This document shows, in pieces, positions 16,901 through 33,244 of a DNA stretch of 64,000 nt. Every line of letters starts with the position of its first letter. Positions within the stretch are counted from its first letter, which is position 1. The notes below the pieces were generated by a model that made no database searches, was not told the DNA's origin, and worked only from the letters and a program-made list of their open reading frames with translations. The stretch is from an uncultured Clostridia bacterium (lineage in GTDB: Bacteria > Bacillota > Clostridia > UMGS1883), in assembly GCA_947626145.1 (NCBI GenBank), contig CANQRB010000004.1, positions 29,250 to 93,249 of the forward strand. Direction: 5' to 3'. Both the position numbers and the translations under genes were made by a program.

Positions 16901-18244
16901 ATTCTCATCATATTCTACCCACCTTGCATACAAAGTTAATTTATTGTTAACGGCCAATTTAAAATCATAGATATTTTCGCAATCCCTATCAGTATACCAG
17001 CCACCAAACAAATAATCTTTACGTTCAGGGTCTTTGGGAATTGTAACATTATTTCCAGCTAAAATCTCTTGACTTTCAGGCGCATCCTCTGCCCCTTCAT
17101 AATTCAAATCAAAGGTGACAGTGTAAACGCCGTCCTCCTCAATTTCTTCTTCCCAACCAGCATACAGAGTCAAGCGCTCGGTAATTTCCGTGTTCTCAAA
17201 ATCAAACTCATAAACGCATTCCTCATCTGTGTACCAGCCCGTGAAGATATAGCCCTCTCTTTCGGGATCATCGGGACGCTCTGCATAATCGTTCTTCTTT
17301 ACTTTCTGGGTAGCCGGAGGATTTTTCGCTCCTGAATAATTCAGGTCAAATTTTACATTGTATCTCGTGGTGCCGCCGGAGCTTCCGCCACCACCGCCAC
17401 CACCGGTGGAACGACTTATCGTATATTCAACGCTCATCACATCGCTGACAAGAACATCATCTTTTACCGCGATTGCCTTCAGTGTCGCGGTAGACAGTAT
17501 ATTTATATTGCCACCTGTGTATTCCTCGCTGTCAACTGTGGGCTCTGTTCCATCGGTCGTATAGTAAATCTTAACGCCCTCGGTGTCGCTCTTAAGCGTT
17601 ACAAGCTGATTTACATAATATGTGCCCGCCTCAACGGACGCGACAGGGGCGGCTACCGTTGTGCGGAGACCGTTATAAACCATTACGGCAATGTCCCCAC
17701 GGGTAGAGGCTGATCCCTTTCTGCCCTTGAGGTTATCCGTTATACCGTTATCCTCAGCCGCTTTAATATAGCCGGCAGACCAATCATCAGGGTCGGATTC
17801 AACATCGTCGCCAAGACCGACGCCGCAAACCACCATCTTTATGGCCTCTTCATATTTGACGTCGTCATCCGGCATAAATCCGCCGCTACCGTTGCCGTTT
17901 ATTATCTCCTCTTTCGCGGCGACATTGATGTAGCCGCTGGCCCAGTGGTCGGCGGGAACATCGTCAAACTTTGTGGCGCCCTTGGAATTGCGGGCATCGT
18001 TCTCCTTGCCTATCATGCGGCATACTACCGCCGCCATTTCGGACCTTGTGATAGATTTATCCGCCCCAAATGTACCGTCGGCGTAGCCGGTGAAAATGTC
18101 GAGCTTTTCCAGAGCGAGAGCCGCCTCGGCGTAATACTCATTCCCCGTAACATCGGAAAAGACCGTGCCTGCGGCAAAAGCACCGATCGGCGCAAGCGAC
18201 AGTGTCATTGCCAAAACTAAAATGATGCTTAAAAATTTTTTCAC
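13928..18244 (-). CDS. S-layer-homology-anchored multidomain M4 (thermolysin-like) metalloprotease
   Basis: GTG start 8 nt after GGAGG, then a signal peptide. SLH-type repeats are present (FSDVTGNEYYAEAALALEKLDIFTGY..., FDDVPADHWASGYI...). A poly-Gly linker follows. Two InlB-B/Listeria-Bacteroides-type repeats are seen (YNVKFDLNYSG...GYIFTGWYTD, YTVTFDLNYEG...DYLFGGWYTD). The zinc site is IIAHEYTHGV with a downstream NEAYADIFG. C-terminal beta-sandwich-like repeats complete the protein. Confidence 0.9.
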   Translation of the reverse strand: MKKFLSIILVLAMTLSLAPIGAFAAGTVFSDVTGNEYYAEAALALEKLDIFTGYADGTFGADKSITRSEMAAVVCRMIGKENDARNSKGATKFDDVPADHWASGYINVAAKEEIINGNGSGGFMPDDDVKYEEAIKMVVCGVGLGDDVESDPDDWSAGYIKAAEDNGITDNLKGRKGSASTRGDIAVMVYNGLRTTVAAPVASVEAGTYYVNQLVTLKSDTEGVKIYYTTDGTEPTVDSEEYTGGNINILSTATLKAIAVKDDVLVSDVMSVEYTISRSTGGGGGGGSSGGTTRYNVKFDLNYSGAKNPPATQKVKKNDYAERPDDPEREGYIFTGWYTDEECVYEFDFENTEITERLTLYAGWEEEIEEDGVYTVTFDLNYEGAEDAPESQEILAGNNVTIPKDPERKDYLFGGWYTDRDCENIYDFKLAVNNKLTLYARWVEYDENEFNKAIVQYAYDTLEITYSKGDCKESVTHDLILPTMIETVDISWESNNINVVSESGSVSRPINENKNVRLNASISKGDYNLTKSFEVTVIKESNFNINESPNNSVVDIEQMNKDADFDTYIEYNEEGSQVTAISGKISDIDINSPDDALYAIYGVRTILGMNDPIKELNISVTNSGKYGTDYTFSQQYNGLDVYDRNLTVSVDNNGTSTSLTSDVVASANLVDVNTDPVISESEAINIAKSQYPQESVDVVSTEVVIYSLDEYEQSPVVAYVICLSGDNIDETVIINGYTGSVIYSGSNILDWGDKRVTGSGENEKNTEVSFPVQFKQWDWLFYYMEDSERNIKMYDGGLVNSRVGSEFNVWRDKTAISAYTNMIDVYNWYADTLGRRSVDGNGYPIKVTVHKFGGSSNACWTGGNKEFYFYDNSNNDSNLQTTTASGLDIIAHEYTHGVVQFKTGNGLSHDHSNGHISYAINEAYADIFGWFVDDNNYTIGEDWRPLRNVKDPSSCHKPSKVGGTNWCTNTGNKSVFAHTNSSVISHAAYLMSQGYPSYSLPAISMSKLIDLWYGSLGKGFSANSNFKTVRRNVLLQADTQGLSKAEKMTIKRAFDDVGIYGDRGTLYIQIVDAEDETFIKDATISILDDDFLIGKVQIGAEGAKELSLDVGTYSVVIEKDGYMPFYGLATVTKDNQTEELVKLVKSGEGKISGVITSATTGYPIDGVIVRLRNGWNSSKGEEISSTITNGSGEYSLTASSGYYTIEMEKYGYTTGYFNVTIIGGREVANQNGSISPSMTSNQYRAVLRWNMNPSDLDSHLVGSLSDHRNFHVYFSNRNGYNASGDLVANLDVDDTDGEGPETVTFEVDINSTYEYYVYWFYGEGTWATSGAQVELYNGNNLVEVYKVSSNQSGNSWPVFKISNGILINYHDEESLVSIESLPDKVPIKDISNEFGGKELKNEESVETAFEGDISENKNTGKKDEELNGNDETDGMIAL

Positions 18245-18342
18245 GATTGTAACCTCCAATTTTATTTATTCACTTTCTAATTGCAGGAAAACACCGCCAC
18301 TGTATGTCACGCCCCCTTTTGGGCGAATTTGTCCTCCGTACA

Positions 18343-20716: not shown

Positions 20717-21340
20717 TTACGATTTTTTGAACTTCGTTTTAAGCGCCTCAAAGTTTGCTTTCAGCTTGGCACGCTCAGCTTCCATTTTCTGCTTGCGTTC
20801 TGCGCTACGCTCAGCGTGCATCTTACGGCGAGCTTCGTCGGCAAGTTCTTTTTCTACGCGCATTGCTTCTTCTACCTCGTCCTGTACCAATGTAGCATCG
20901 CGTCGAAGAATCGTCGTTTGAAACTTATCGAACCGAAAATCCAGTGCATGATCTGTTTCCTCCTGCGCAAGGAGAAGAATCGCGACCTCACCGTCCTCCA
21001 GCTTTGATCCAACCGTTTCCAGCATTGTGTTGTTCCGATCCACATCATCAATGTCTTTGGCGCTTCCAATCAGATGACCTGTCATACCACCCAAAAGGAT
21101 GCCGAGAGGACCACCGAGAATTCCGATCAGACCGCCAATCAGACCGCCCGCGAGGGCGTCATCGCTGCTGTCCATGCCGCTTGTGAATGAGTCTATGGTG
21201 GAAATTATATTACCGTTTTTCTTTACAAGCGCCCCTTGCAATACGGTATATTGCGGCATAATTGGCTGCTTTTTGATTCCCATGTAGGCTTGATAGCCCT
21301 CGCTTTCCACATTGAACAAAATAGTTAAGACATTTTCCAT
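20717..21340 (-). CDS. Glycine-zipper membrane/stress-type protein (DUF1269-like, from memory)
   Basis: 207 aa. A central AGGLIGGLIGILGGPLGILLGGMTGHLIGS glycine zipper is followed by a K/E/R-rich coiled-coil tail. Confidence 0.65.
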   Translation of the reverse strand: MENVLTILFNVESEGYQAYMGIKKQPIMPQYTVLQGALVKKNGNIISTIDSFTSGMDSSDDALAGGLIGGLIGILGGPLGILLGGMTGHLIGSAKDIDDVDRNNTMLETVGSKLEDGEVAILLLAQEETDHALDFRFDKFQTTILRRDATLVQDEVEEAMRVEKELADEARRKMHAERSAERKQKMEAERAKLKANFEALKTKFKKS

Positions 21341-21538: not shown

Positions 21539-21988
21539 TTATCTCCTGTTTGCTTTTTTCAGTTCCTTTTGGGCGGCTTTGATTTCCCGTTGCAGTTCGT
21601 CAAGTTCCTGTTCCAGTGCGTCGGCAATATAATCTCCGGTAATCACAGCGGCACGAATCATACAGGCGGTGCTTACAATGGCATCCTCCACCTCTTTTCC
21701 GAGTCCGAGGAGTTCCAGAGAACCTGTGCCGTTTTCATCGTACAGCACCACGTCCGGAATCCCGTTTTTATCCGTGTCTCCGAAGTACAGATTGAATTCT
21801 CCGTCGCCGGTGAGATCCACCGCCAGCGTGTCAATATCTCCGTCGCCGGTGGTATCAAGCAAAGCCAAATCCGCTTCTTTATCTCCGTCAATATCGATCA
21901 AAATCTCGTCTTTTCCACTGCGAAGCAGTGTCTTGTGCCAGTCGCGGTCAAATTTCATTTTAGTTTTCAATTTTCTGAGGGTTCCCAT
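21539..21988 (-). CDS. Acidic protein with repeated EF-hand/DxDxDG-like calcium-binding loops
   Basis: 149 aa. Loops seen: DIDGDKEAD, DTTGDGDID, DLTGDGEFN, DTDKNGIPD and DENGTG, then a C-terminal coiled coil. An AAGGAG RBS is present. Confidence 0.65.
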   Translation of the reverse strand: MGTLRKLKTKMKFDRDWHKTLLRSGKDEILIDIDGDKEADLALLDTTGDGDIDTLAVDLTGDGEFNLYFGDTDKNGIPDVVLYDENGTGSLELLGLGKEVEDAIVSTACMIRAAVITGDYIADALEQELDELQREIKAAQKELKKANRR

Positions 21989-22084
21989 AGGTCATTGCTC
22001 CTTTTCTTTTATTTTGGGCTTTTTCAGCCTTTTTTATAGGGTTATTCTGTCCGCAACACAAACAGGGGCTCTCTTTGCGGCATT

Positions 22085-22410
22085 TCTGGAGGGGATGATG
22101 CCGGCAATTTCTGACGCAACAAGCACCCCACCCCTGTGGTGGCCGGGTAGTGTTTAACTTCGAAATAAATCAATGAAATCATTAGTAATCTTATAACTTC
22201 TCCCTTGATTTATTCCGTTTCATCCGATCCCATTTTTGCAGCAGCCTCTTTATAGAAACATCCAAATATCCAATATAATTTTGCCACCGTAAAATCCGCT
22301 TATGATAGGGGCCTTCCTTTCCAAAAAACTTGTTGGATTGATACCGTCTCTGCCGCTTCTCACAAATCATGATAGCAGAGAAATCTAAACTGAAACGAAA
22401 CTGTCTTTTT
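22085..22410 (-). pseudogene. Decayed, internally deleted duplicate of the SAS-GT8-CDP-alcohol-transferase operon
   Basis: Nucleotide similarity was read by eye. Positions ~22085-22195 resemble 22830-22930 (the 5' part of the transferase gene). Positions ~22200-22290 resemble 22995-23090 (the GT8 3' end). Positions ~22300-22410 resemble 24630-24726 (the SAS start, 5'UTR and promoter box). No intact ORF remains. Confidence 0.65.
22369..22402 (-). promoter_or_regulatory. Box 1: 20-bp response-regulator-type box plus -10 hexamer
   Basis: Minus-strand sense reads AGTTTCGTTTCAGTTTAGAT-8 nt-TATCAT. The box is 22383-22402 and the -10 is 22369-22374. Confidence 0.6.
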
Positions 22411-22414
22411 TCTT

Positions 22415-22987
22415 TTATTTGTGCGGAACAGGATTGTTTTTACTCAAAATATGCTTATAGTATCGGATATAAAGGATGAGAGACATAATCATCAAACATC
22501 CGCTTATTAGAATTAGACCATTTGCTATTTTCAATGGGATATCGGGGAAAAGGATAAGCACAGATATAACAATATACAAAAAAACTGTGTTCAACTTTCC
22601 ATACCATTTTGCGCTGTTGACAGTATCTTTTCGTTTCAAAGCAAGATATCCAAGCGTGGCCATGCAGATTTCTTTTCCGATAAACAATACGATCAGAACA
22701 GACATCCACTTATACCGACTCGAAAGGCAGACAATAAGTACACATTGCGTCAATTTATCCGCTATGGGGTCTAATATCTTGCCAAGATCGGATACCATAT
22801 GGAACTTCCGTGCAATGATACCATCAGCAATGTCCGTAATTGCTGACGCGACAAGCACTCCTGTGGCTGCTTGGTAGTGTTTGACCCCGATATAAAGCCA
22901 TACGATCAGCGGGATCATCAGTAATCTTATAACGCTAAGCAAATTCGGTATGGTCAGGATTTGGTCTTTTTTGAATATCCTGTGCAT
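22415..22987 (-). CDS. CDP-alcohol phosphatidyltransferase family protein
   Basis: 190 aa, polytopic. Signature D-x2-DG-x2-AR...G-x3-D-x3-D is seen as TDIADGIIARKFHMVSDLGKILDPIADKL. A GGGAGG RBS is present. Confidence 0.9.
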   Translation of the reverse strand: MHRIFKKDQILTIPNLLSVIRLLMIPLIVWLYIGVKHYQAATGVLVASAITDIADGIIARKFHMVSDLGKILDPIADKLTQCVLIVCLSSRYKWMSVLIVLFIGKEICMATLGYLALKRKDTVNSAKWYGKLNTVFLYIVISVLILFPDIPLKIANGLILISGCLMIMSLILYIRYYKHILSKNNPVPHK

Positions 22988-23005
22988 TGAATATCCTCCC
23001 TTAAT

Positions 23006-23851
23006 CTATTCCGTTTCATCTGATCTCATTTTTGCAACAGCCTCTTTATAGAACACATCCAAATCTCCGATATAATTTTCTTTCCACGGTTTATTCCTTC
23101 CGCAGTAGTGAATTATAATGGAGTGCTTTCGTACCCAATTCAAATCAAGACTTTTTTCAAATGGACTGTGCACCCGATAAAGCCACTCTGTCATGTTATA
23201 TCGAAATGGGTCCAGCGTATAGATTTTGCTGCCATACAGGCTGCTGATAATGTCCTGATCCGGAAAGACAAGATGAGATTTTCTCTTTTCGATGAAGTGA
23301 AACACATCCGCATAGTCCTGCTCTTTCCGTAAAAGCGAGAGGTTCATGAGCAACACGCCGGAATTAATATATGGGCTGTTGTCATCCATATCCAGACGCA
23401 GTTCATTGAACTTATGGAGAAACCCAAGACTGTCAATGTGTGACGCTGCCGCATAATAGTATTCTTCCATCGAGGTCTGATACAGTGGAAGAATCGAACC
23501 ATTGAGAACAAGATCGGGGTCAAGATAGAGCACGCGGTCGAGAGTCTCCGGCAGATAGCGTGCAGCAAAAATACGGTAATAAATCTCTTGTGGATAGCGC
23601 GAAGTTGTTGGGGCCTCGTCAAGCGCCAAATAATCAGCCTTTATTGGGATCAGACATCCTCCTGCCTTAAAAAGCATTTTTTCGGTTGCTTTAAGCGCCT
23701 GCTTTGAAATTGAGGAATGAAGAAGATACACATGGAATACGCAGCCTGGGTTGGAGCGAATCAAGGTTGAAAGCATCACATTCAAATAGGGGATGTAGTT
23801 TTCATCCAAAGTAACAAGAATATTAATCGGATTTATCAATCCAGGATTCAT
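23006..23851 (-). CDS. Glycosyltransferase family 8 (GspA-like)
   Basis: LVTLDENYIPYLNVMLSTL, the DxD motif in YLDPDLV, and NSGVLLMNL. ATG 23851 lies 6 nt after GGGAGGG; the ORF-track start at 23899 is less likely. Confidence 0.85.
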   Translation of the reverse strand: MNPGLINPINILVTLDENYIPYLNVMLSTLIRSNPGCVFHVYLLHSSISKQALKATEKMLFKAGGCLIPIKADYLALDEAPTTSRYPQEIYYRIFAARYLPETLDRVLYLDPDLVLNGSILPLYQTSMEEYYYAAASHIDSLGFLHKFNELRLDMDDNSPYINSGVLLMNLSLLRKEQDYADVFHFIEKRKSHLVFPDQDIISSLYGSKIYTLDPFRYNMTEWLYRVHSPFEKSLDLNWVRKHSIIIHYCGRNKPWKENYIGDLDVFYKEAVAKMRSDETE

Positions 23852-23917
23852 TTTAATCCCTCCCTGTTTCTTATGTTGTATATAGTCTTCTTCACCCATT
23901 CACAAATCCTACCATTT

Positions 23918-24625
23918 CTATCGTGGTTTCAGAGTATTTTTATTTTGTTGGGTCTTTTTTAAGAGGTTATCCATTCTCCGATCAAGTTCCGCGCTGAGGT
24001 TTGCGCACTGATAAAGTTCCTCAGCCATTTCCGGGGTAAATGCAGAATCCTTTTTATAACGAAGCTGATGTTCAAGGCTGGCCCAGAAATCCATCGCTAT
24101 CGTGCGCAGCTGAATTTCTACTTTCATCATCCGTTTTTCATGTGCCAAAAAGATCGGAATTGCTACAATCAGATGCAGACTTCTATATCCGTTGGGTTTC
24201 GGGTTTTTTATGTAGTCCTTTTTTTCAATCAGGGTAATGTCATCCTGTATGAGCAATGCCTCTGACAGCGCATAAACATCGTCCGGAAATGAGCAGATTA
24301 CTCGAACACCGGCAATATCGTTTAGATTTTCTTCTATAGAGGAAAGTGTGGGCGGGATGCCCCGCCGCTCCAATTTTTCTTTTATGCTGCGGGGATTTTT
24401 CAGTCTGGTTTTGATACTGCTTATCGGATTACGGTCGAATTCCAAAGAATATTCTTCATTCAACACATTGAATTTTGTTTCAATCTCCATCATGGCACAT
24501 TTGTAATAGGACATCAGGCGGATAAAAGGTACAGATTTTCTCTGCATCCAGTCGATTGTCTGATCGTCCACAATAGAGAGCATTCGTGTTTTTATATTTT
24601 CATCCTCTTGATTCCATTCAGACAT
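23918..24625 (-). CDS. Small alarmone synthetase (RelQ/RelP-type GTP pyrophosphokinase, RelA_SpoT domain only)
   Basis: About 235 aa: IKTRLKNPRSIKEKLERRG...DIAGVRVICSF...KPNGYRSLHLIV...VEIQLRTIAMDFWASLEHQLRYKK. There are no hydrolase or regulatory domains. Confidence 0.9.
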   Translation of the reverse strand: MSEWNQEDENIKTRMLSIVDDQTIDWMQRKSVPFIRLMSYYKCAMMEIETKFNVLNEEYSLEFDRNPISSIKTRLKNPRSIKEKLERRGIPPTLSSIEENLNDIAGVRVICSFPDDVYALSEALLIQDDITLIEKKDYIKNPKPNGYRSLHLIVAIPIFLAHEKRMMKVEIQLRTIAMDFWASLEHQLRYKKDSAFTPEMAEELYQCANLSAELDRRMDNLLKKTQQNKNTLKPR

Positions 24626-24692
24626 TCTGATCTTCCTTTCCAAAAAACAAAGCTTGTTGGATCAATACCGGCTCTGCCGCTTTTCGCAGGTA

Positions 24693-24726
24693 ATGATAGC
24701 AGAGAAAACTAAACTGAAACAAAACA
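24693..24726 (-). promoter_or_regulatory. Box 2: 20-bp box plus -10 hexamer upstream of the SAS operon
   Basis: Sense strand reads TGTTTTGTTTCAGTTTAGTT-8 nt-TATCAT. It matches boxes 1 and 3 at 17 of 20 positions, and its 8-nt spacer (TTCTCTGC) is identical to that of box 1. Confidence 0.6.
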
Positions 24727-24818
24727 ACGACGGACCCTTCGAAAAAGAAGAATCCGTCTGACCGCTTTACGGCGGAAGTAATAAACTAATTTTATAACCA
24801 TTTCGCAAGTTGACTGTA

Positions 24819-26588
24819 TCAAGCTGCAAGGCAGCGAGCGTTGGCGCTGGATTGCTCCAGCCGGTCAGATGCTGCTTTGATTGCAGCCATCTCACTTTCA
24901 GTTACGGTTTCCGGTTTATATTTGCCAAGCAACTTTCGTAATGCAGAACAGTCTTCTTTAATCTGCTTTTTTTCTTCTTTTTCAAGCTGCTTCCCAACTT
25001 TGTGCAATGCCTGTTCAGCTTCTGATAATACCTTCCCTGCGCGATTAACCATTTCTAAAGAGTTACGGCGAACACCATCCTGTGCCGCATACTGTTCCGC
25101 ATCGCGAATCGCCTGTTCAATCTCCGCATCGGACATTTTATCATTGTTCGAAATGGTAATAGACTGTGCTTTCCCCGTATCCAAATCTCTTGCGGACACT
25201 TTTAAAATTCCATTGGCATCAATGTCGAAAGTAACTTCAATCTGCGGCACTCCTGCGGGGGCTTTCTTAATTCCGTTAAGTTTGAATTTGCCGATGGTCT
25301 TATTATCGCGTGCCATTGGCCGTTCTCCTTGTAGAACATGAATTTCCACACTGCTTTGAAACGGTGCCGCGGTTGAAAAAATCTGTGAATAGTGAATGGG
25401 CAAAGTGGAATTTCTCTCCACAAGACGTGTTGCGACACCGCCTACTGTTTCAATAGAAAGGCTGAGAGGGGTAACATCCAAAAGAAGGATACCGTTTTCC
25501 GAACCGGCAATCTGCAGCGAACCGCCAGAAAGCGTGTCTCCCTGAATGGCGGCGCCCTGAGCAACACACTCATCCGGATTGATATTCTTTGACGGTATAA
25601 TACCGGTCAATTGACGCACTTTTTCCTGAACAGCGGGAATACGGGTTGCGCCTCCGACAAGGATGACCTTGCCAAGTTCGGATGGCGCAATACCAGCATC
25701 ATTCAAGGCGTTCTGTACCGGAATTGCTGTTCGATCCACAAGATCGCGGGTCAGCTCGTTGAATTTGGCACGGGTGAGGATAGTATCAAAGTGTATTATG
25801 CCGTCCTTTTCCTGGGCCAGGTACGGCAGGCTTATCATAGCGTTCTCTGAGCCGGACAGTTCCTTTTTTGCCTGTTCAGCCGCTTCACGCACACGCTGCA
25901 ATGCTACATAATCTTTTTTTACATCTGTATGATACTGCCTCTGAATTTCCGAAATCAAATACTCAGTGATACGCTCATCAAAGTCATCGCCGCCCAAATG
26001 GTTATCACCATTTGTTGCCAGAACTTCTATAACGCCGTCTCCAATCTCAATGATGGAAACATCAAAAGTACCGCCGCCAAGGTCATATACCATGACCTTT
26101 TGCTGTGTTCCGTTATCCAGCCCGTAAGCAAGCGCGGCGCTGGTTGGCTCATTAATAATCCGTTTTACATTTAAGCCTGCAATTCGCCCGGCATCTTTTG
26201 TGGCCTGTCGCTGAATATCGTTAAAATAAGCGGGTACAGTGATGACCGCGTCCGTCACTTCCTCTCCAAGAAAGGCTTCTGCATCCTTGCGCAGTTTTCG
26301 TAGAATCATTGCACTGATCTCCTGCGGCGTAAATCTTTTACCGTCAATATTGATAGTCCAATCCGTCCCCATGTGACGTTTCACAGACGAAACGGTTCGG
26401 GACGCATTAGTAACCGCCTGTCGTCTTGCCGTTTCACCCACTAACCGTTCACCGGATGCGGTAAAAGCAACAATGCTGGGAGTGGTTCTTCCGCCTTGTT
26501 CGCTTGGAATGATAACGGGTTTGCCGCCCTCTACAAAAGCGACGCAGCTATTCGTTGTTCCAAGATCAATACCGATTGTTTTTCCCAC
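24819..26588 (-). CDS. Accessory Hsp70-family chaperone (DnaK paralogue)
   Basis: [25 protein letters not shown] and GGDDFD, followed by substrate-binding and lid regions. The likely GTG start at 26588 gives the canonical [15 protein letters not shown]-terminus; the ORF track extends to 26615. It is AT-richer than the core, and no grpE lies nearby. Confidence 0.9.
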
Positions 26589-26605
26589 AGTAATTCCATC
26601 CTTTC

Positions 26606-27406
26606 CTACATACATCTAAGGCAGCCAAATGGGCCGCATAGGAATTGCATGGCTAAAAAGCCAAAACATATTTTTTGTATATTAGTGGCTTCCATATCGA
26701 AGCCTTTTGCATTTTGTTCATAGGTTTGCTCTGAACGGCGAAATTTTTGCAAAAGCAGATGATAGGTGCGATTATTCGGCTCCATTTGTGATGCTCTCTG
26801 CATATGGTCGATTGCCTGAACGGTGTTACCAAGACCATGATTGGCAAGAGCGCTTAAATAATACCACCTTGCACCTCGTCCTACGCTCGGTATACGGGTC
26901 AAAATCCAAATTGCCTCTTGATAGCGATGGTTATTGATTTCAGTAATGGCCTGCCTGATTTCCATATTGTCGCCCGGCTCAGGCTGCGGATTCATAAAAA
27001 CGGCATCATCATTGCCGTTCCGTTCAAATCCAAATCCAAAAATATTCCCAAAGTCAAAGCCGCCAAAATCGCTCGACCAGCCACCCGGACCTCGATAACC
27101 GCCAGAGCCGCCCTGCCTTTCATATCCGGTTCCACTATAACCGCCGTTTTGATTTTCCGTATATCCCCCATATTGCCTACTCTGTCCGTAAGATTGGCGC
27201 TGCTGTGCTCGCCTTGCCTCATACTTCTGCGGATTCATCAACATATCGTAGGCTTCATTCACCGCATTCATTTTTTGGCTCGCGGTCGGATCATCGGGAT
27301 GCAAGTCAGGATGATATTGCTTTGCCTTTTGACGATATGCTTTTTTTATTTCTTCTTTAGTCGCTCCTTTAGGAACGCCCAGAGTTTGATAAGGGTCATT
27401 GACCAT
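26606..27406 (-). CDS. J-domain protein with G/F-rich linker, TPR-like region and hydrophobic Cys-rich tail
   Basis: J domain [36 protein letters not shown] (HPD motif). A Gly/Tyr/Phe-rich tract follows. The C-terminus is [21 protein letters not shown]. There is no DnaJ-type zinc-finger CxxCxGxG repeat. Confidence 0.85.
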
Positions 27407-27409
27407 GGC

Positions 27410-28228
27410 TCACTTTTTCCTTTCCGTCTGCATTTGCCGGTTATATTTGATCCAAACGCCAGAATAAAGAATGTTCCTTAAAATGTGGGCGTCCTGGACA
27501 AGCGGCAGCGATTCAAAGGCTTCAGCAGCTTCTCCGAGAATGGTCTTCAGCATGGAGCGGATTTCTTCCTGACTCAGAGTGACAGAAGAAAAAGGATTAT
27601 AACTTCCTTTTTTCTGGTCATGCCTTAAATCAATCGCGGCATCGGCAAGATAGATATACTTTCCGATATGATAACCAAACTTCTGCAAACGCGGCATCCA
27701 GTGATCCGGCTCAACCACAAAAATCGTTGACATCAATCTGCCAAAGCTGTTGGCTGCCGCATCTGGAGAGGCGAAGCAGGATTTCTCAATTTCAGAGATT
27801 TCATTTATTTCCTTTTCGATGATCGAACACTGATCTTTTCTTGCTGCTCTGACTTCTTCATAAGCCTTTTTAAGCAGAGTGGCATAGCACTTGTGGGAGA
27901 TATTTCGATCATCGTTCCAGTCGTCAAGACATTTGAAGTATGTCAAGGCTATTGTCATATCGGCGGCATAGTCTATATATTTACCGGACAGATAATTATG
28001 TTTCTTGCATGGATGCACGGCACATCGCACCGCTTTGCTGGTTTCCTCCGGTTCATACAAGGATGATAAAAACATAGCCAAGAATGTCAGATCGTATGTC
28101 AGTCCCAATCGCGACCTAAATCCATACCTTTCCCCCAACGCATGACACAATCCGCAATAAAAGGCACGATACCGTTCTTTTTCTTCATCAGTAAGACCGG
28201 ATAAATTGGCCTGTATGATTCCAAACAT
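27410..28228 (-). CDS. DUF5685-like protein
   Basis: 272 aa. The N-terminus MFGIIQANLSGLTDEEKERYRAFYCGLCHALGERYG...LTYDLTFLAMFL matches my memory of DUF5685. This was not verified by search. Confidence 0.55.
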   Translation of the reverse strand: MFGIIQANLSGLTDEEKERYRAFYCGLCHALGERYGFRSRLGLTYDLTFLAMFLSSLYEPEETSKAVRCAVHPCKKHNYLSGKYIDYAADMTIALTYFKCLDDWNDDRNISHKCYATLLKKAYEEVRAARKDQCSIIEKEINEISEIEKSCFASPDAAANSFGRLMSTIFVVEPDHWMPRLQKFGYHIGKYIYLADAAIDLRHDQKKGSYNPFSSVTLSQEEIRSMLKTILGEAAEAFESLPLVQDAHILRNILYSGVWIKYNRQMQTERKK

Positions 28229-28237
28229 AGTGCCACC

Positions 28238-28648
28238 TCATGTTTTGCGGGTTATTTTGCCTTTACATACCGGACAAGTGATTTCAATTTGCCCTTTTCC
28301 TTTCGGAACTCGTAGCCAACTTTTGCAGTTCGGACATTTATAATACCGATGCGTCTTTCGATCTCGCCACATATTTTTCCGACGTTTGAAACTCTGCTTC
28401 ACTTTGTCTGTATATTTCAAGAAAGTTTCCCGCTCCTTCTGTCGTTTTTCAAGATTGCGGGAAAAGCTGCGAAACATCGACCAAATCAACAGAATCATCG
28501 CAATCGGATATAGCAGAGGGACGAGCGGGGAAATGAGTACGAAAACCAGCACCGCAATCAATAGAAATTTGGAAAGCTCGTCATAGCCGTATCTTCCGTA
28601 CATCCATGCCTGCATTTTTTCTCCGAGCCTTTGCAACCATCGTTTCAT
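28238..28648 (-). CDS. Membrane-anchored zinc-ribbon protein
   Basis: 136 aa with two TM-like segments, then YYKCPNCKSWLRVPKGKGQIEITCPVCKGK (CxxC...CxxC). An AAAGGAG RBS is present. Confidence 0.65.
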   Translation of the reverse strand: MKRWLQRLGEKMQAWMYGRYGYDELSKFLLIAVLVFVLISPLVPLLYPIAMILLIWSMFRSFSRNLEKRQKERETFLKYTDKVKQSFKRRKNMWRDRKTHRYYKCPNCKSWLRVPKGKGQIEITCPVCKGKITRKT

Positions 28649-28688
28649 TTTCCGTTTCTCCTTTATCGGCTTACTCTTTTTACACCAA

Positions 28689-28722
28689 ATTTTACAGCAA
28701 GAATCTAAACTGAAACGAAACT
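28689..28722 (-). promoter_or_regulatory. Box 3: 20-bp box plus -10 hexamer upstream of the chaperone operon
   Basis: Sense strand reads AGTTTCGTTTCAGTTTAGAT-8 nt-TAAAAT. The box is identical to box 1 over all 20 nt. Confidence 0.6.
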
Positions 28723-28928
28723 AAGGAAGAGCTTTCTTCCAGACTATTTTTTCGGTAAGTTCAGTTCTGATAGATTTACTGAATAGCCGCAGAAGTCATA
28801 GACCTACATAAAAAAGAACCTCCACAACGAAGGCTCTCACGGTAAATCTCATATTGGAAGCGGCAGTATGCCTCACAGCACACTGCCACTTTACGCTTCT
28901 CATGCTTAATTAAATGTCCCGCACTATT

Positions 28929-29714
28929 TTATCCAATGCCTCTGAAAGCATTAACGGAAAGAATCGCCACGCCTAAAACCGTCAGCACCACACCAACAGC
29001 CCTGTTGAGCGTTTTGGCGCTGGCCTTGTTTGCGAACAATGCGGCGATCCTTGCCCACAACAGAGTAAACGCCACGCAGAGAGCGAGACACCATAGGTCG
29101 GGCATATCGCCAATGGCAAAATGACTGACGGCGCCGGTCAGCGCGGTAAAGGTCATAATAAAGACACTGGTACCCACAGCGGTTTTTAATTCATATCCCA
29201 AAATGCTGGTCAACAGAAGCAGCATCATCATTCCACCGCCTGCGCCCACAAAACCACAAATGAAGCCGACGACCATTCCGCAGACAATCGACTGAATCGT
29301 CCGCTTTTTTGCGCTTACGACAGCCATCGCCTCCTTTGTGGTCATGACAGGTTTTACAATAAATTTGATGCCCAAAAGCATCGTCATGAAGACGGAGAAG
29401 CTGCCCATAGTGGCGTTGGAGACCAGACTGGCTACCCAACTGCCTACTAAGGTGAAAAGCAAGACGGCCACCATCATAACAAGCCCGTTGCGAATGTCGA
29501 TGTTTTTGTTTTTTCCATAGGTATAGGCGCTGACCGCACTTGCCAGCACGTCACTTGCCAGAGCGATGCCTACCGCTTCATAAGCCGGCATACCCATAAA
29601 TGTGATCAGCATTGGGCTGATGACTGCGGCGGCGCTCATTCCGGCAAAACCGGTTCCCAAACCCGCTCCGATACCTGCTATAAAACAAACTAAAACTTTT
29701 ACCCACAGATTCAT
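28929..29714 (-). CDS. TSUP (TauE/SafE) family permease
   Basis: About 261 aa from ATG 29714, which has a GGAGAAAAA RBS. It is polytopic with Gly-rich helices (GAGLGTGFAGMSAAAVISP..., GFVGAGGGMMMLLLL). Confidence 0.8.
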   Translation of the reverse strand: MNLWVKVLVCFIAGIGAGLGTGFAGMSAAAVISPMLITFMGMPAYEAVGIALASDVLASAVSAYTYGKNKNIDIRNGLVMMVAVLLFTLVGSWVASLVSNATMGSFSVFMTMLLGIKFIVKPVMTTKEAMAVVSAKKRTIQSIVCGMVVGFICGFVGAGGGMMMLLLLTSILGYELKTAVGTSVFIMTFTALTGAVSHFAIGDMPDLWCLALCVAFTLLWARIAALFANKASAKTLNRAVGVVLTVLGVAILSVNAFRGIG

Positions 29715-29845
29715 TTTGCGTTTTTCTCCATATATTTTTTTATATTCTTTTCCACCCGCGTTATGTAGGACTGAAACTGCCGCTGACCTCTTTGTCAAGA
29801 TCGTCTGCGATGATATCCGCAAAATCGAAGCACTCTGATAAAAAA

Positions 29846-30940
29846 TCAGTTTTTCTGGCTTTCTTCTTCTGCATTTAGCTTTGATTTCGGCAATGTAACC
29901 GTAAACATGGTAAGATTGTTTTCGCTTTGAACCGAAACCGTTCCGTTGTGCAATTCCACCACTTTTTTGACAATTGCAAGCCCGATTCCGTTTCCCTCAC
30001 CGGAGTGTGAACTGTCAGCCTGATAAAATTTCTGAAAGATTCGTGATATACTTTCCGCAGGAATTTCCTCTCCCGAATTGATGATATCCACGGACAGGGA
30101 AGACGGTTGATTTTTAATATTGACTTCAATGACTCCTCCAGCGGGAGAAAATTTGATCGCGTTATCCAGCAGATTGATCCACACCTGTTTCAAAAGCTCC
30201 TCATTGGCAGAAATCCTGTATTCACCGAAATCCACTTTAAAGTCCAGTTGCTTTTTTTCCCACTTGTCGGCAAGCAACAGGATGGAAGACCGGATTTGTT
30301 CTGAAAGGTTAAACTTTACAACATCCGTTAAAATCGTTTGATTTTCTACCCGCGTCAGATTCAACACGTTTGTCGCCATATCAGAAAGCCGCAGAGATTC
30401 TTCTTCGATAACCGCCAAATATTCCCCTTTTTGTTCTTCTGTCAGGTTGCCTCGGCGAAGCAGCTTTGCAAAGCCGGCAATAGATACGATGGGCGTTTTG
30501 AATTCATGCGAAAAATTATTTACAAAATCCCCACGAAGCATCTCTGTATTTTTGAGTTCAGAAGCCATTCGATTGAAGCTGTGCGAAAGCTGCGAAAAAG
30601 TAGGATGTTTGGATATGGGCCATCCGAAATCCAATCGGGCACTGAAATCACCGGATGCCAGCCGATCGATTTGATAAATTACATTCCGCAGGGGGCGGGC
30701 GGATATTTTACTGGATAAATAGGCAACAATGACACCGACAATATTACTGATGACGATCATGTAGAGGATGATAATACCGATGTTTGATCGGATATCGGTA
30801 TCAAGCGTGACAACTTGAAAATGTACCAGCATATAAATAATAGAAGCGGTTATTGAAGTAATAATAAATTGAATGAAAAAAATAAGTGTCGATATTAAAA
30901 ACGTGAGCGCAAAATAATGTTTTCGATTTTGTTTGTTCAT
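29846..30940 (-). CDS. Sensor histidine kinase, intramembrane-sensing architecture
   Basis: Two TM helices are separated by only about 13 residues (FQVVTLDTDIRSN). HAMP follows, then the H-box FSHEFKTPI and an HATPase domain (NLLDNAIKF, GNGIGLAIV). Confidence 0.9.
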   Translation of the reverse strand: MNKQNRKHYFALTFLISTLIFFIQFIITSITASIIYMLVHFQVVTLDTDIRSNIGIIILYMIVISNIVGVIVAYLSSKISARPLRNVIYQIDRLASGDFSARLDFGWPISKHPTFSQLSHSFNRMASELKNTEMLRGDFVNNFSHEFKTPIVSIAGFAKLLRRGNLTEEQKGEYLAVIEEESLRLSDMATNVLNLTRVENQTILTDVVKFNLSEQIRSSILLLADKWEKKQLDFKVDFGEYRISANEELLKQVWINLLDNAIKFSPAGGVIEVNIKNQPSSLSVDIINSGEEIPAESISRIFQKFYQADSSHSGEGNGIGLAIVKKVVELHNGTVSVQSENNLTMFTVTLPKSKLNAEEESQKN

Positions 30941-31611
30941 ACTTTTTTCACCGCCTTATATCCGAGCCCGCGCACGGATTCGATATCAAATTCTTCCCAA
31001 CCCTCGAACCGTTTGCGGAGCCTGCCGATGTGAACCGTCACAGTTTCCCACCCGGTATCGCTCTCAGCGCCCCAGATTTCATCCATCAGTTGAATCCGTG
31101 TAAAAATCTTTCCGGGGTATGACAGCAATTTATAAAGTAACAAAAATTCCTTTTGCGGGAGTTCTTGTGTCTCGCCGTTTTTGGTCACGGTAAAGGAATC
31201 GTAATCCAAAATTACATTTCCAATCGTCATTTTACGTTCGTTGGCAATTTGAGCGCGGCGTAGAAGTGCTTTGATTCGCCAGAGCATTTCTTCCTCATCA
31301 ATCGGTTTTGTCATGTAGTCGTCAATCCCTAATGAAAAACCTTTATGTTTATCTTCGGGGAGCTGTTTTGCCGAAACCATAAGAATGGGAAGATTGTTCT
31401 TGCTTTCGCGGAGGATTTTTGTAAATTCATATCCGTCCATTTTCGGCATCATTATGTCGAGAATCACAAGGTCAATATACTCTTTATCCATTACATCGAG
31501 GGCGTCTTCACCGTTTTCCGCAGTAAATACAGAATAGTGCTCCGTTTCAAGCACGGCTTTGAGCAGCCGGCGTGTATTTTTATCGTCGTCTACAACAAGA
31601 ATTTGGAACAT
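30937..31611 (-). CDS. OmpR/PhoB-family response regulator
   Basis: Receiver domain (ILVVDDDKN...DLVILDIMMPKMDG...MVSAK) plus winged helix (VTVHIGRLRKRF...VRGLGYK). Its stop overlaps the kinase start by 4 nt. Confidence 0.93.
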   Translation of the reverse strand: MFQILVVDDDKNTRRLLKAVLETEHYSVFTAENGEDALDVMDKEYIDLVILDIMMPKMDGYEFTKILRESKNNLPILMVSAKQLPEDKHKGFSLGIDDYMTKPIDEEEMLWRIKALLRRAQIANERKMTIGNVILDYDSFTVTKNGETQELPQKEFLLLYKLLSYPGKIFTRIQLMDEIWGAESDTGWETVTVHIGRLRKRFEGWEEFDIESVRGLGYKAVKKV

Positions 31612-31642
31612 TGTTTACACCTCCTAATAATCAATATAAGAT

Positions 31643-31676
31643 AAGATAACATACAAATCTAAACTGAAAAGAAAGT
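31643..31676 (-). promoter_or_regulatory. Box 4: 20-bp box plus -10 hexamer upstream of the two-component system (autoregulation candidate)
   Basis: Sense strand reads ACTTTCTTTTCAGTTTAGAT-8 nt-TATCTT, preceded by TGT (extended -10). It matches box 1 at 18 of 20 positions. The -10 lies about 30 nt upstream of the regulator ATG. Confidence 0.6.
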
Positions 31677-32096
31677 GTGCGAGTTTAATCCCCAAAATTT
31701 ATTATTTCGTTCAGCAGGCTTTTTCGCGTCTTTGAGCAACAGCCACATCTTTCCCATTTTATCGACTCCTGCAATACGTCCGGCAAAACAGTAATAATTT
31801 AATCATGCGGGGAGAGATACCCCATTTTTCGCTGCCTATTTGAACGTCATGTAATTAAAATATCGCACCTCCACATATAAAATTATATTTCGTTATCTTG
31901 AAGAAAGCAAGTGCATTTGATGAACATTAGATGAATTATTTACCCTCGCTACTGAAACTGTAAAGACATATCCAAATAAAGAAAGGGACTGTAAAATGGA
32001 TCAATTTCAATAAAGCGGACAGAAAAACATAAGATGGCAGGAAATTATGTAAAATATTCAATATCCATATTTCTCATAAAGTATATCACATAAAAA

Positions 32097-33153: not shown

Positions 33154-33244
33154 TGGCGGAGAGAAAGGGATTCGAACCCTTGATCGGGGTTAACCGATAC
33201 ACGATTTCCAGTCGTGCGCCTTAGACCAGCTCAGCCATCTCTCC
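33154..33244 (-). tRNA. tRNA-Ser (anticodon GGA)
   Basis: Folded by hand. The acceptor stem is GGAGAGA/TCTCTCC. The anticodon arm is CACGA-CUGGAAA-UCGUG. A long variable arm (ATCGG...CCGAT) and a T-arm (AAGGG-TTCGAAT-CCCTT) are present. The discriminator is G and CCA is encoded. Confidence 0.93.

Follow-up and report, generated by a model that had tools for sequence, protein, structure and literature searches.

What does the 11-mer TTTCAGTTTAG, which recurs in front of several transcription units of the window (the whole 64-kb stretch of DNA analysed here), stand for? An earlier note on this DNA had proposed that a conserved box at a fixed distance from the -10 element joins a two-component system to three other units in one stress regulon. 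The computationally testable parts of that reading are supported by the sequence comparisons described below.

Four boxes and their promoters

A sequence search found TTTCAGTTTAG exactly four times in the window, on the minus strand each time (22385-22395, 24709-24719, 28705-28715 and 31659-31669). With up to three mismatches allowed, the 20-mer AGTTTCGTTTCAGTTTAGAT returned the same four sites only (0, 3, 0 and 2 mismatches), whereas 100 shuffles of the sequence gave 0 matches; looser half-site patterns revealed no fifth site in the window. When the sequence was read directly, each box was followed after 8 nt by a -10 element of the form TAnnnT (TATCTT, TAAAAT, TATCAT and TATCAT at sites 1-4). 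In a sigma-70 scan of the four promoters no -35 hexamer was found at 4/6 or better, the best candidate by eye being GTTTCA, at 3/6. The positions, the spacing and the lack of a good -35 given in the earlier note were thus all borne out. Of its 20-bp box of tandem half-sites the direct repeat with an 11-bp period stood, the length did not: two 11-bp units in tandem, GTTTCGTTTCA / GTTTAGATTTC, describe the box better, and this 22-bp repeat directly abuts an extended -10, TGnTAnnnT. The elements are as follows.

31654-31676, minus: box 1, putative autoregulatory operator; 20-mer ACTTTCTTTTCAGTTTAGAT plus TTG finishing the second 11-bp unit
31643-31648, minus: -10 of site 1, TATCTT, with TGT in front (extended -10; position-frequency matrix)
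28814-28838, minus: terminator-like hairpin closing the regulator-kinase-TauE unit (11 pairs and a T run)
28700-28722, minus: box 2, consensus AGTTTCGTTTCAGTTTAGAT plus TCT
28689-28694, minus: -10 of site 2, TAAAAT (sequence read)
24729-24758, minus: terminator-like hairpin closing the Hsp70 operon, immediately 5' of box 3 (12 pairs)
24704-24726, minus: box 3, TGTTTTGTTTCAGTTTAGTT plus TTC
24693-24698, minus: -10 of site 3, TATCAT, with TGC in front
22380-22402, minus: box 4, consensus, within the duplicate of the site-3 promoter
22369-22374, minus: -10 of site 4, TATCAT, with TGC in front
22098-22401, minus: decayed duplicate (promoter/leader 84%, GT8-end/CDP-OH-start junction 90%, CDP-OH fragment 70%)

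Box 1 is the most degenerate of the four, and the regulator ATG at 31611 gives site 1 a leader of about 25 nt. Boxes 2 and 3 each have a terminator-like hairpin upstream. Sites 1, 2 and 3 have nothing in common outside the box and the -10. The decayed copy of the synthetase/GT8/CDP-alcohol operon that had been described earlier was recovered in its three fragments, and because site 4 belongs to it (22313-22401 matches promoter and leader of site 3 at 84% identity), site 4 does not count as independent of site 3. Therefore, although all four sites are present as claimed, the window holds three independent promoters and one duplicate. The output of site 4 is uncertain, since the next intact gene lies 374 nt away across decayed fragments.

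Genes of the four units

The gene assignments of the earlier note agreed with Pfam and with the open reading frame translations.

31711-31911, minus: decayed ORF of a small helix-turn-helix protein, 5' of the regulator gene (73% over 210 nt against locus L209)
30937-31611, minus: OmpR/PhoB-family response regulator, Response_reg and Trans_reg_C (Pfam)
29846-30940, minus: histidine kinase, TM1-loop-TM2-HAMP-HisKA-HATPase_c (Pfam; hydrophobic segments)
28929-29822, minus: TauE/SafE-family membrane protein (start uncertain, TTG 29822 or ATG 29714)
28238-28648, minus: membrane-anchored zinc-ribbon protein (N-terminal hydrophobic hairpin; C-terminal CxxC...CxxC)
27410-28228, minus: DUF5685 protein (Pfam; DDWND motif, conserved Cys/His residues)
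26606-27406, minus: J-protein (J domain, Gly/Phe-rich region, TPR-like region, Cys-rich hydrophobic C-terminal tail)
24819-26615, minus: DnaK-type Hsp70 paralogue (Pfam)
23918-24625, minus: small RelA_SpoT-type synthetase (Pfam)
23006-23899, minus: family-8 glycosyltransferase, GT8 (Pfam)
22415-22987, minus: CDP-alcohol phosphatidyltransferase, PgsA/Cls-like (Pfam)
21539-21988, minus: DxDxDG-repeat (EF-hand-like) protein of 149 aa, about 374 nt 3' of the site-4 -10 (ORF translation)
20717-21340, minus: DUF1269 glycine-zipper membrane protein (Pfam), with a homologue in box-carrying locus L179

The regulator, whose phospho-acceptor is probably D52, has the recognition helix GWETVTVHIGRLRKRF, typical of its clade, and is no PhoB equivalog, its score of 179 bits falling short of the cut-off (296). 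In the kinase, hydrophobic segments at about residues 10-39 and 54-77 are separated by about 14 residues, and the protein reads as an intramembrane-sensing kinase, as had been proposed; over 100 clusters of kinases 352-368 aa long make up its clade (identity at least 55%). TauE is probably made from the same transcript, and in locus L092 the gene order is likewise regulator-kinase-TauE, with TauE 89% identical. Upstream of the regulator gene, ORF 31711-31911 is by its sequence the remnant of a mobile-element gene: the window copy contains stops and frameshifts, whereas its counterpart in L209 is an intact small ORF adjoining a Phage_integrase gene.

The DUF5685 protein is predicted to adopt the fold of trans-prenyl diphosphate synthases. 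Neither grpE nor hrcA was found next to the Hsp70 paralogue gene. The synthetase, which likely starts at ATG 24625, matching its orthologues, falls under the YjbM equivalog cut-off (170.8 versus 320). An orthologue of the DxDxDG-repeat protein in locus L087, 81% identical, lies downstream of a box-driven ABC-FtsX gene, and the DUF1269 gene is possibly the last gene of the site-4 unit. The island also contains an ECF sigma gene (8472-9041) with an ABC module.

Conservation of the box among relatives

A footprint was compiled from 43 non-redundant sites. Information was present only in the box, in T20-T21-C22 of the second 11-bp unit, in TG at -15/-14 and in TAnnnT, which stands exactly 8 nt past the 20-mer (TA in 39/43, final T in 37/43). 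The TG of the extended -10 occurs in about two-thirds of the sites of this matrix, and the upstream flank has zero information across the 43 contexts. The earlier note had considered that a motif frequent genome-wide without promoter association would speak against a regulon; the box lies at a fixed -10 distance in about 40 independent contexts, before unrelated genes, and the genomes concerned span 42-63% GC. The spacing has exceptions, since the commonest human-gut variant (71 loci) has TATACG at N8 and a perfect TATAAT 11 nt further.

The suggested survey of gene neighbourhoods found the box before regulator, chaperone and synthetase orthologues in relatives. These orthologous genes (regulator, Zn-ribbon/DUF5685/DnaJ/Hsp70, synthetase) keep box and spacing though the flanks have diverged. 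Counterparts of box 1, similarly weakened, lie 5' of the regulator gene in L086, L008, L092, L209 and L210, the autoregulatory boxes being systematically the weakest in the relatives' loci. Those of box 2, 5' of the Zn-ribbon orthologue, are identical in L086 and diverged in L008 and L013; those of box 3 precede synthetase orthologues in L086, L087, L092 and L209. L086 has boxes 5' of three genes, those for the regulator, for the Zn-ribbon protein and, at the alarmone-synthetase position, for a 240-aa protein without a recorded Pfam hit; in L087 the genes with a box are the alarmone synthetase and an ABC-FtsX gene, and in L092, L209 and L210 they are regulator, synthetase and an ABC gene. Thirteen loci have 2-4 boxes each, often in back-to-back divergent promoters. 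Comparative evidence of this kind supports the view that the box is under selection and is not a product of chance or duplication.

Linkage of the box to the regulator clade

With a 19-nt DNA pattern alone, 42 distinct metagenomic contexts were retrieved. A regulator or kinase orthologue is encoded in 27 of them (16/22 of the contexts of at least 5 kb), mostly 70-95% identical and at 8 nt to 3 kb from the box; the retrieved sequence around the box in the other 15, most of them short contigs, has none, and three or four of these 15 have no -10 either and may be chance or intragenic matches. The exact 11-mer was absent from 1.17 Mb surrounding 80 DUF5685 genes, and the 78 DUF5685 loci that have no regulator also have no box. 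Near-matches that keep the geometry before the expected genes were found among these 80 loci in L008 only (regulator 76% identical); in L013, the second of the 80 with a regulator orthologue (80%), GTTTA-N6-GTTTA was seen by eye before the Zn-ribbon gene, a repeat that the scan had missed.

The recognition helix GWETVTVH[IV]GRLRKRF is common to 30/30 box-linked regulators, which are 69-100% identical and come from genomes of 42-63% GC. A paralogous regulator in locus L066 (52% identical) has the helix DPRTVDVHIKRLREKL, and its target promoter reads GTTCATATTCG/GTTCATAATAC, then 5 nt, then TAGTAT, with the geometry unchanged. Recognition helix and repeat sequence co-vary across these sequences. 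The box, which precedes the regulator gene in many genomes, very probably serves the regulator encoded next to it as a docking site, and the tie between box and two-component system was upheld.

How the box may work

From the sites with their geometry and conservation, their linkage to the clade of the regulator, and the way helix and repeat co-vary, we infer that the box is likely to be the operator of regulator 30937-31611, which would bind it and activate the three units and the duplicated promoter on a membrane signal. When the cytoplasmic membrane or its lipids are disturbed, kinase 29846-30940 would phosphorylate the regulator, of which a dimer would bind head-to-tail on GTTTCGTTTCA / GTTTAGATTTC, at about -39 to -18. 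Placed directly 5' of the extended -10 TGnTAnnnT, the bound regulator would replace the missing -35 and recruit sigma-A RNA polymerase in the fashion of PhoB at a pho box. This would switch on its own regulator-kinase-TauE operon, a positive feedback via the weakest box; the membrane-associated Hsp70 module (Zn-ribbon protein, DUF5685 protein of prenyl-synthase fold, J-protein and DnaK paralogue); and the alarmone-synthetase, GT8 and CDP-alcohol-transferase operon with its presumed enzyme products. From the duplicated promoter the Ca-binding-like protein and the DUF1269 membrane protein would be expressed.

The same operator could serve a repressor that blocks polymerase on a self-sufficient extended -10 until the signal relieves it, which we consider unlikely. 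The TGn extension is conserved and an extended -10 can work without a -35; moreover, an operator at -39 to -18 overlaps the polymerase footprint, and occlusion would be equally possible. However, the geometry matches the established PhoB-type class II activation, most of the -10 hexamers are imperfect (TATCAT, TATGAT, TATCTT), and systematically weakest autoregulatory sites are the usual pattern of positive feedback. OmpR-family direct repeats that replace the -35 typically activate, e.g. GTTAAN6GTTAA of SaeR (PMC5083920).

Recognition of the box by another factor, either as the -35 of the ECF sigma (8472-9041) or by another transcription factor, seems very improbable. This ECF sigma is encoded in the island with its ABC module, and ECF promoters have conserved upstream elements at a fixed spacing, but the downstream element here is TGnTAnnnT of the sigma-A type and not an ECF-type -10. 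A homologue of the ECF sigma occurs in no box-carrying locus, in contrast to the regulator/kinase in 27/42 contexts; a 22-bp box of tandem 11-bp repeats suits a winged-helix dimer rather than a -35 of 5-7 bp; and co-variation of the recognition helix with the repeat argues against any other factor. It is scarcely credible that the boxes are alike only because a promoter was duplicated or carried along in a mobile cassette, without selection for binding: sites 3 and 4 do have a duplicated promoter and leader in common and the module adjoins mobile-element remnants, but sites 1, 2 and 3 are alike in box and -10 only, flanks across 43 contexts are devoid of information, the box is retained at 42-63% GC before unrelated genes, and in place of extended homology around all sites and box loss from orthologous promoters the opposite of both was found.

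Comparison with known systems

In E. coli, pho boxes are tandem 11-bp direct repeats that replace the -35 and end about 10 nt 5' of the -10. The window's regulator has the receiver and winged-helix architecture of PhoB, and the two systems agree in the two tandem 11-bp units for the missing -35 and in the predicted autoregulation of the own operon. Unlike PhoR, the kinase, which is of the intramembrane-sensing type, lacks a PAS domain and any coupling to a phosphate transporter; repeat sequence and regulon differ as well.

As in BceRS-BceAB and HssRS-HrtAB, where an OmpR-type regulator and an adjoining small kinase induce an FtsX-type ABC transporter, the box in L210 and L087 would drive an ABC_tran+FtsX fusion of 1000 aa, whose gene comes immediately after either the regulator-kinase pair or the synthetase operon. 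The paralogous operator of L066, GTTCATATT-CG-GTTCATAAT, presumably resembles the HssR direct repeat. The window, in contrast, has no adjacent or box-linked FtsX-type transporter, the transporter of the relatives is a single fused polypeptide, unlike the BceA/BceB pair with its large extracellular domain, and BceR-type operators are inverted repeats.

Small alarmone synthetases are under envelope-stress control in S. aureus (VraRS, relP/relQ) and in B. subtilis (sigma-M, ywaC). Here too a RelQ/RelP-like synthetase is placed under a putative cell-envelope stress regulator, but this is of the OmpR type and not a NarL-type or ECF sigma regulator, and the synthetase gene comes first in an operon that continues with GT8 and the CDP-alcohol transferase.

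SaeS of Staphylococcus aureus likewise belongs to the intramembrane-sensing kinases: its two TM helices are joined by a linker of 9 residues, and a HAMP domain is present. SaeR-P binds the direct repeat GTTAAN6GTTAA, its own P1 promoter being among the targets (PMC5083920). The 5+6+5 layout of this repeat equals that of GTTTC-N6-GTTTA in the window. Sae activity is tied to the fatty-acid kinase FakA/FakB (PMC5539427), and DegV (FakB) and FakA are recurrent putative box targets in the window's relatives. On the other hand, the DNA-binding domains are distantly related (E 4e-10; SaeR is not the best PDB match), saeP and saeQ are absent here, the targets are housekeeping-type membrane/lipid genes and not virulence factors, and the hosts are uncultured Oscillospirales-type Clostridia.

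Cargo of the regulon

Box-driven genes in relatives encode ABC exporters (10 loci), DegV (8 loci), FakA-PlsX-DegV, FtsH, MGDG synthase, acyl-AMP ligase, PlsC-like and other acyltransferases, and radical-SAM + PlsA-like + MMPL clusters. This lipid, transporter and FtsH cargo therefore points to membrane homeostasis, and the putative label 'membrane stress' is taken from gene content alone. The circuit had been called 'self-contained, horizontally acquired'. Its origin agrees with the low GC of the island and with the integrase/recombinase remnants that adjoin the nearest homologues of both two-component genes; self-contained it is not, as it belongs to a large regulator/kinase clade of gut Clostridia with variable, mostly membrane-lipid/transporter cargo. 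Nor is the Hsp70 machine 'private', for the DUF5685-Hsp70 operon is much more widespread than the box-linked two-component system. Judged by these comparisons the regulon is widespread and mobile and not private to the window's island. Many uncultured gut Clostridia share box, regulator and promoter layout, set before genes for chaperones, alarmone synthesis, transporters and membrane lipids, and this makes up a real, hitherto undescribed putative membrane-stress regulon, in which the mechanistic type would be familiar (PhoB/SaeR-like activation) and the regulon new. Glycolipid and ether-lipid-type genes were also noticed among the box-driven genes of relatives.

The box in the window and its promoters

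The four boxes described in the earlier note were recovered when its invariant 11-mer, TTTCAGTTTAG, was traced through the 64-kb window, where it occurs exactly four times and always on the minus strand.

31676-31643, minus strand: site 1, hexamer TATCTT, before the regulator (30937-31611), kinase (29846-30940) and TauE genes
28722-28689, minus strand: site 2, hexamer TAAAAT, before the Zn-ribbon, DUF5685, J-protein and Hsp70 genes
24726-24693, minus strand: site 3, hexamer TATCAT, before the RelA_SpoT small synthetase, GT8 and CDP-alcohol transferase genes
22402-22369, minus strand: site 4, hexamer TATCAT, before a decayed operon copy and the DxDxDG protein gene

With up to three mismatches allowed, the 20-mer matched only these four sites and had no match in 100 shuffles; looser half-site patterns revealed no additional sites in the 64-kb window. 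At all four sites the hexamer begins 8 nt past the box, so that the fixed distance to the -10 element holds throughout. The claim that a good -35 is absent was also confirmed, as a sigma-70 scan found no -35/-10 pair at the box positions and the best -35-like hexamer agreed in 3/6 positions. The gene assignments listed with the sites, made previously from the sequence, proved correct, including the OmpR type of the regulator and the HAMP/HisKA type of the kinase. TauE, which groups with the regulator and the kinase, was called in addition, as were the length of the DxDxDG protein (149 aa) and a DUF1269 membrane protein that accompanies it.

Separate transcription units are supported by terminator-like hairpins immediately 5' of boxes 2 and 3. 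Site 4 cannot be counted as an independent site: the sequence at 22313-22401 repeats the promoter and leader of site 3 at 84% identity, and behind it come remnants of the GT8/CDP-OH junction and of the CDP-OH gene, in agreement with the decayed operon copy proposed earlier. An RNA element was considered and rejected: Rfam at the gathering threshold gave only tRNA-Ser over the window, and a permissive scan of 22000-24800 gave nothing. The inverted repeat CTCTGC...GCAGAG at sites 3 and 4 was likewise discarded; it would not be in the transcript, since its 5' arm lies upstream of the -10, and it is unconserved in two relatives (L086 and L087).

Anatomy of the predicted operator

An alignment was made of 43 non-redundant sites, of which 4 belong to the window, 7 to relatives and 32 to metagenomic contexts. 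In this alignment the conserved block runs three bases (T-T-C) past the 20-mer, and the candidate operator consists of two tandem 11-bp units, GTTTCGTTTCA and GTTTAGATTTC, that are 7/11 identical and conserved in 43 contexts. The previous reading of tandem half-sites thus stands as to the direct repeat of about 11 bp, whereas the length has to be corrected from 20 to 22 bp. The operator is followed at constant distance by nnTGn and TAnnnT, with TA in 39/43 and the final T in 37/43 sites; the 12 positions upstream of the box and all positions 3' of the -10 contain no information. Judged from this pattern, the layout is that predicted for a winged-helix dimer site in place of the -35 at an extended -10 sigma-A promoter. 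PhoB occupies pho boxes with the same geometry.

Class of the regulator and the kinase

The regulator combines a receiver domain (PF00072, 1.1e-32) with a Trans_reg_C winged helix (PF00486, 7.4e-18), the architecture of the OmpR/PhoB family. It scores below the PhoB equivalog cut-off (TIGR02154, 179.1 bits vs 296.2), and the NCBIfam cut-offs for VanR and VanS were missed by the regulator (167.7 vs 460) and the kinase (150.2 vs 400), respectively. An exact-protein look-up of the regulator returned five short metagenome contigs of the same organism and nothing else. The intramembrane-sensing class of kinases, reportedly defined by Mascher in 2006, is said to have two N-terminal TM helices, a linker too short for a ligand and no extracytoplasmic domain. 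The window kinase, previously described as of this type, has hydrophobic segments centred at residues 17-35 and 59-71 that are separated by a loop of about 14 residues (HFQVVTLDTDIRSN), and thus shows the TM helices and short loop of the class; its homologues are uniformly 352-368 aa long.

That envelope-stress regulators induce a small alarmone synthetase is a known theme (VraRS, sigma-M). The closest overall counterpart of the window system is SaeRS of Staphylococcus aureus, with a kinase that has a 9-residue linker and HAMP, a direct repeat GTTAAN6GTTAA and an autoregulated promoter (PMC5083920). A further report links Sae functionally to fatty-acid kinase (PMC5539427). The two systems differ in that the SaeR DNA-binding domain ranks only about 19th (E 4e-10) among the PDB hits of the regulator and that no lipoprotein/membrane-protein pair (saeP/saeQ) lies upstream of the window regulator gene. 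Bce-type modules differ from it as well, as the window has no transporter of the Bce type and no BceA ATPase and BceB-type permease are found beside the two-component system; the only ABC genes of the low-GC island that carries the boxes (9743-12933) sit with an ECF sigma factor and carry no box.

The box in relatives

A search of relatives, as proposed in the earlier note, found the same box and promoter layout at orthologous genes. Eighty genomic loci around DUF5685 homologues (1.17 Mb in all) were fetched, and a close regulator orthologue was present in only two of them, L008 (76% identity) and L013 (80%). In L008 recognizable boxes with the same spacing precede the regulator and Zn-ribbon genes. 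In L013 GTTTA-N6-GTTTA, missed by the pattern scan, was seen by eye before the Zn-ribbon gene, the regulator promoter being off the contig end. The exact 11-mer is absent from the other 78 loci. A rule that two-component systems control DUF5685-Hsp70 operons generally found no support, as most of the 80 loci have no such system nearby; in those of Lachnospiraceae an unrelated regulator (33-37% identity) lies convergent to the operon, the promoter is an ordinary TTGACA-N17-TAAGAT, and a common repeat is absent. At L010:3350-3620, another locus of the comparison, and at L013:5840-5960 the gene for the alarmone synthetase stands close behind or directly at the end of that for Hsp70 and lacks a box; the chaperone and synthetase units are therefore fused into one operon there.

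Four closer relatives were obtained by exact-protein look-up. L086 has retained the cluster in full; boxes precede its regulator and Zn-ribbon genes as well as the gene in the alarmone-synthetase position, which encodes 240 aa with no Pfam hit on record. In L087 boxes precede the synthetase gene and the gene of a 1003-aa ABC-FtsX protein; next after the latter comes the gene for an 81%-identical DxDxDG protein. The two others, L209 and L210 (kinase 89% identical), carry boxes before the regulator gene, a synthetase-DedA-GT8-CDP-OH-DUF2238 operon and an ABC-FtsX gene.

Linkage of the box to the regulator clade

Metagenome contigs were scanned for GTTTYGTTTCAGTTTAGAT, so that loci were chosen by DNA pattern alone; at least 120 were obtained, collapsing to 42 distinct contexts. 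Among the matches listed, a regulator or kinase orthologue, mostly 70-95% identical to that of the window, is encoded at a distance of 8 nt to 3 kb in 27/42 contexts, and in 16/22 of those that extend over 5 kb or more; 13 loci have 2-4 boxes, often as back-to-back divergent promoters. The recognition helix GWETVTVH[IV]GRLRKRF is invariant in the box-linked regulators (30/30 among the matches listed), which come from genomes of 42-63% GC. A paralogue that is 52% identical and likewise accompanied by a short-loop kinase is found in one further locus, L066:

L066, 9497-9530 and 11550-13249: paralogous regulator and short-loop kinase in a Zn-ribbon/DUF5685/DnaJ operon, the promoter of which carries GTTCATATTCGGTTCATAATAC

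Here the recognition helix reads DPRTVDVHIKRLREKL. Upstream of the DUF5685 operon stand GTTCATATTCG/GTTCATAATAC and, after a further 5 nt, TAGTAT; the geometry is the same and the repeat a different one, which may resemble the HssR box of S. aureus. Of the computational arguments for a reading of the box by the adjacent regulator, this co-variation of helix and repeat is the strongest.

It is probable that the kinase senses membrane perturbation and that the regulator, once phosphorylated, occupies the 22-bp tandem repeat (about -39 to -18), where it would activate sigma-A transcription of the four units, its own among them. Such a mechanism would resemble the class II activation by PhoB. The autoregulatory boxes are consistently the most degenerate (2 mismatches in the window; GAA instead of GAT-TTC in L086, L209, L210 and another carrier, L092), and a weakest box at the regulator's own promoter fits positive feedback with a threshold. 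That the regulator acts as a repressor, a reading that shares its pairing with the box, is considered unlikely. Reading of the box by another factor or an ECF sigma is very improbable: the island does encode an ECF sigma, but no homologue of it was found near any box among the matches listed, and this candidate reader was rejected. A duplication or cassette artefact, as the copied site 4 might suggest for the similarity of the boxes as a whole, is scarcely credible for an element shared by such diverse loci.

Content of the predicted regulon

The genes downstream of 65 distinct boxes were sorted into recurrent families; naive ORF calls in high-GC loci gave several Arg-rich antisense artefacts, which were discarded.

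Genes downstream of 65 distinct boxes (among the matches listed)
ABC exporters: 10 loci, including ABC_tran+FtsX fusions and heterodimeric exporters
Regulator/kinase pair itself: 8 loci
DegV (FakB): 8 loci, also as FakA-PlsX-DegV
Zn-ribbon/DUF5685/DnaJ/Hsp70 module: 5 loci
Radical-SAM/SPASM proteins (about 470 aa): at least 4 loci; L202 (box at about 770), L136:10154-10173, L113, L144, L098, L107
FtsH: 3 loci
Small synthetase: 3 loci
CDP-alcohol transferase: 3 loci
Further genes: MGDG synthase; PlsC-like and 2-oxoacid_dh-like acyltransferases with acyl-AMP ligase; alpha/beta hydrolase

Together with the kinase topology, this gene content suggests that the system watches over the cytoplasmic membrane and its lipids and repairs them. 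In L202 the radical-SAM/SPASM gene is followed by genes for HGD-D, HGD-D+BcrAD_BadFG (PlsA-like) and MMPL, an order of the PlsA-like ether-lipid kind (compare PMC13159169); in L136 it is divergent from a SAM-synthetase-like gene. For these proteins NCBIfam gave only generic rSAM/SPASM hits. A membrane-spanning or ether-lipid pathway may be under the regulator at the radical-SAM loci. The most abundant carrier lineage among the matches listed is formed by L155 and at least 70 near-identical human-gut loci (e.g. L090, L093 and L094). Its box precedes the 2-oxoacid_dh-like acyltransferase and acyl-AMP ligase genes, with the PlsC-like acyltransferase gene divergent; at N8 the sequence reads TATACG, with a perfect TATAAT one helical turn further downstream. 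At a back-to-back pair in another contig (L163:1599-1718) a consensus box drives another two-component system that is unrelated to the first; its regulator is 42% identical, and its kinase has a long extracytoplasmic region. This suggests a regulatory cascade.

Oscillospirales-type Clostridia are abundant in the human gut and hard to culture, and their signal transduction is almost unexplored. The present analysis provides a concrete predicted regulon for a large uncharacterized kinase/regulator clade of gut Clostridia, and the 22-bp predicted operator, with its fixed promoter geometry, allows members of the regulon to be predicted from any genome or metagenome. The cargo (FakA/DegV, PlsX, acyltransferases, glycolipid and ether-lipid-type enzymes, ABC exporters, FtsH, the Hsp70 paralogue and the alarmone synthetase) points to membrane defence or remodelling in these anaerobes, which is relevant to bile acids, antimicrobial peptides of host or bacterial origin, fatty acids from the diet and drugs that act on membranes. 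What is gained is a new regulon and not a new principle, an OmpR-type regulator on direct repeats that replace the -35 being textbook. In the literature no description of such a circuit or its box was found, and the 11-mer appeared only in unrelated primers.

The chaperone and synthetase proteins

DUF5685 is a large Clostridia family (5089 hits at E < 1e-10, counted as 90%-identity cluster representatives; best identity among GTDB representatives 58%). It is predicted to have the all-alpha fold of trans-isoprenyl diphosphate synthases, to which its identity is 9-16%. The first Asp-rich motif is invariant (D102 D103 W104 x D106) and the second is reduced to A-D196-A-A-x-D200. The literature mentions DUF5685 once in passing, PF18937 never, and describes no function for DUF5685, which here gains a predicted prenyl-synthase fold and a regulatory context. 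The Hsp70 exceeds the cut-off of the DnaK model NF001413 (810 vs 648 bits) and stays below that of TIGR02350 (798.6 vs 822.55); as neither grpE nor hrcA adjoins, it is regarded as a DnaK paralogue. The small synthetase, a 241-aa ORF with a single RelA_SpoT domain (PF04607, 3.4e-33), fits the RelQ/RelP architecture (about 200-250 aa) and reached 170.8 bits against the YjbM/RelQ equivalog NF053588 (cut-off 320). In the DUF5685 locus L014 a 76%-identical TauE homologue (11679-12449) adjoins the operon without a two-component system. In function, therefore, TauE may go with the chaperone module and not with the kinase.

It is conceivable, if rather doubtful, that the box and the two-component system together make up a mobile programme of membrane homeostasis, plugged into one gut Clostridia genome after another with changing cargo. 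One such cargo would be a hitherto unrecognized machine of a membrane-tethered J-protein/Hsp70 pair with DUF5685 and a membrane zinc-ribbon protein. If true, chaperone action would be coupled to polyprenyl or lipid-carrier metabolism during membrane damage, beside a brake on growth driven by alarmones and the remodelling of head groups or glycolipids.

Origin and surroundings of the island

The island spans about 4.2-33 kb at 40-46% GC inside DNA of 57-60% GC, and the closest relatives of the cluster are found in DNA of 42-48% GC. In L209 and L210 fragments of a Phage_integrase and a DUF4368 recombinase lie 5' of the regulator/kinase genes, and a small helix-turn-helix ORF that is intact in L209 has a decayed copy in the window, where no integrase remains. 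The low GC, these fragments and the decayed ORF make horizontal acquisition of the cluster plausible. The interpretation in the earlier note is upheld as far as computation reaches. Of the self-contained, horizontally acquired circuit proposed earlier, acquisition is thus retained, whereas the system is widespread and not private to the island. A plasmid origin was rejected (no megablast match to 72,556 plasmids). The following features mark the edge of the island and a second, box-less envelope-type module within it (8472-12933, plus strand).

33154-33244, minus strand: tRNA-Ser(GGA) at the island edge, with the GC step near 33-34 kb
8472-9041, plus strand: ECF sigma factor, with a probable anti-sigma ORF
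9743-10600, plus strand: ABC ATPase, with two unannotated ORFs of 384 and 393 aa

Beyond the tRNA gene lies a conserved aromatic amino-acid biosynthesis cluster that is also present in the comparison locus L001. The island further encodes two very large surface proteins: a thermolysin-like M4 peptidase of 1443 aa that is SLH-anchored and has Flg_new, Big and CarboxypepD_reg domains (13928-18259, minus strand), and a protein of 1034 aa with weak carbohydrate-binding-module hits (4721-7825, minus strand).
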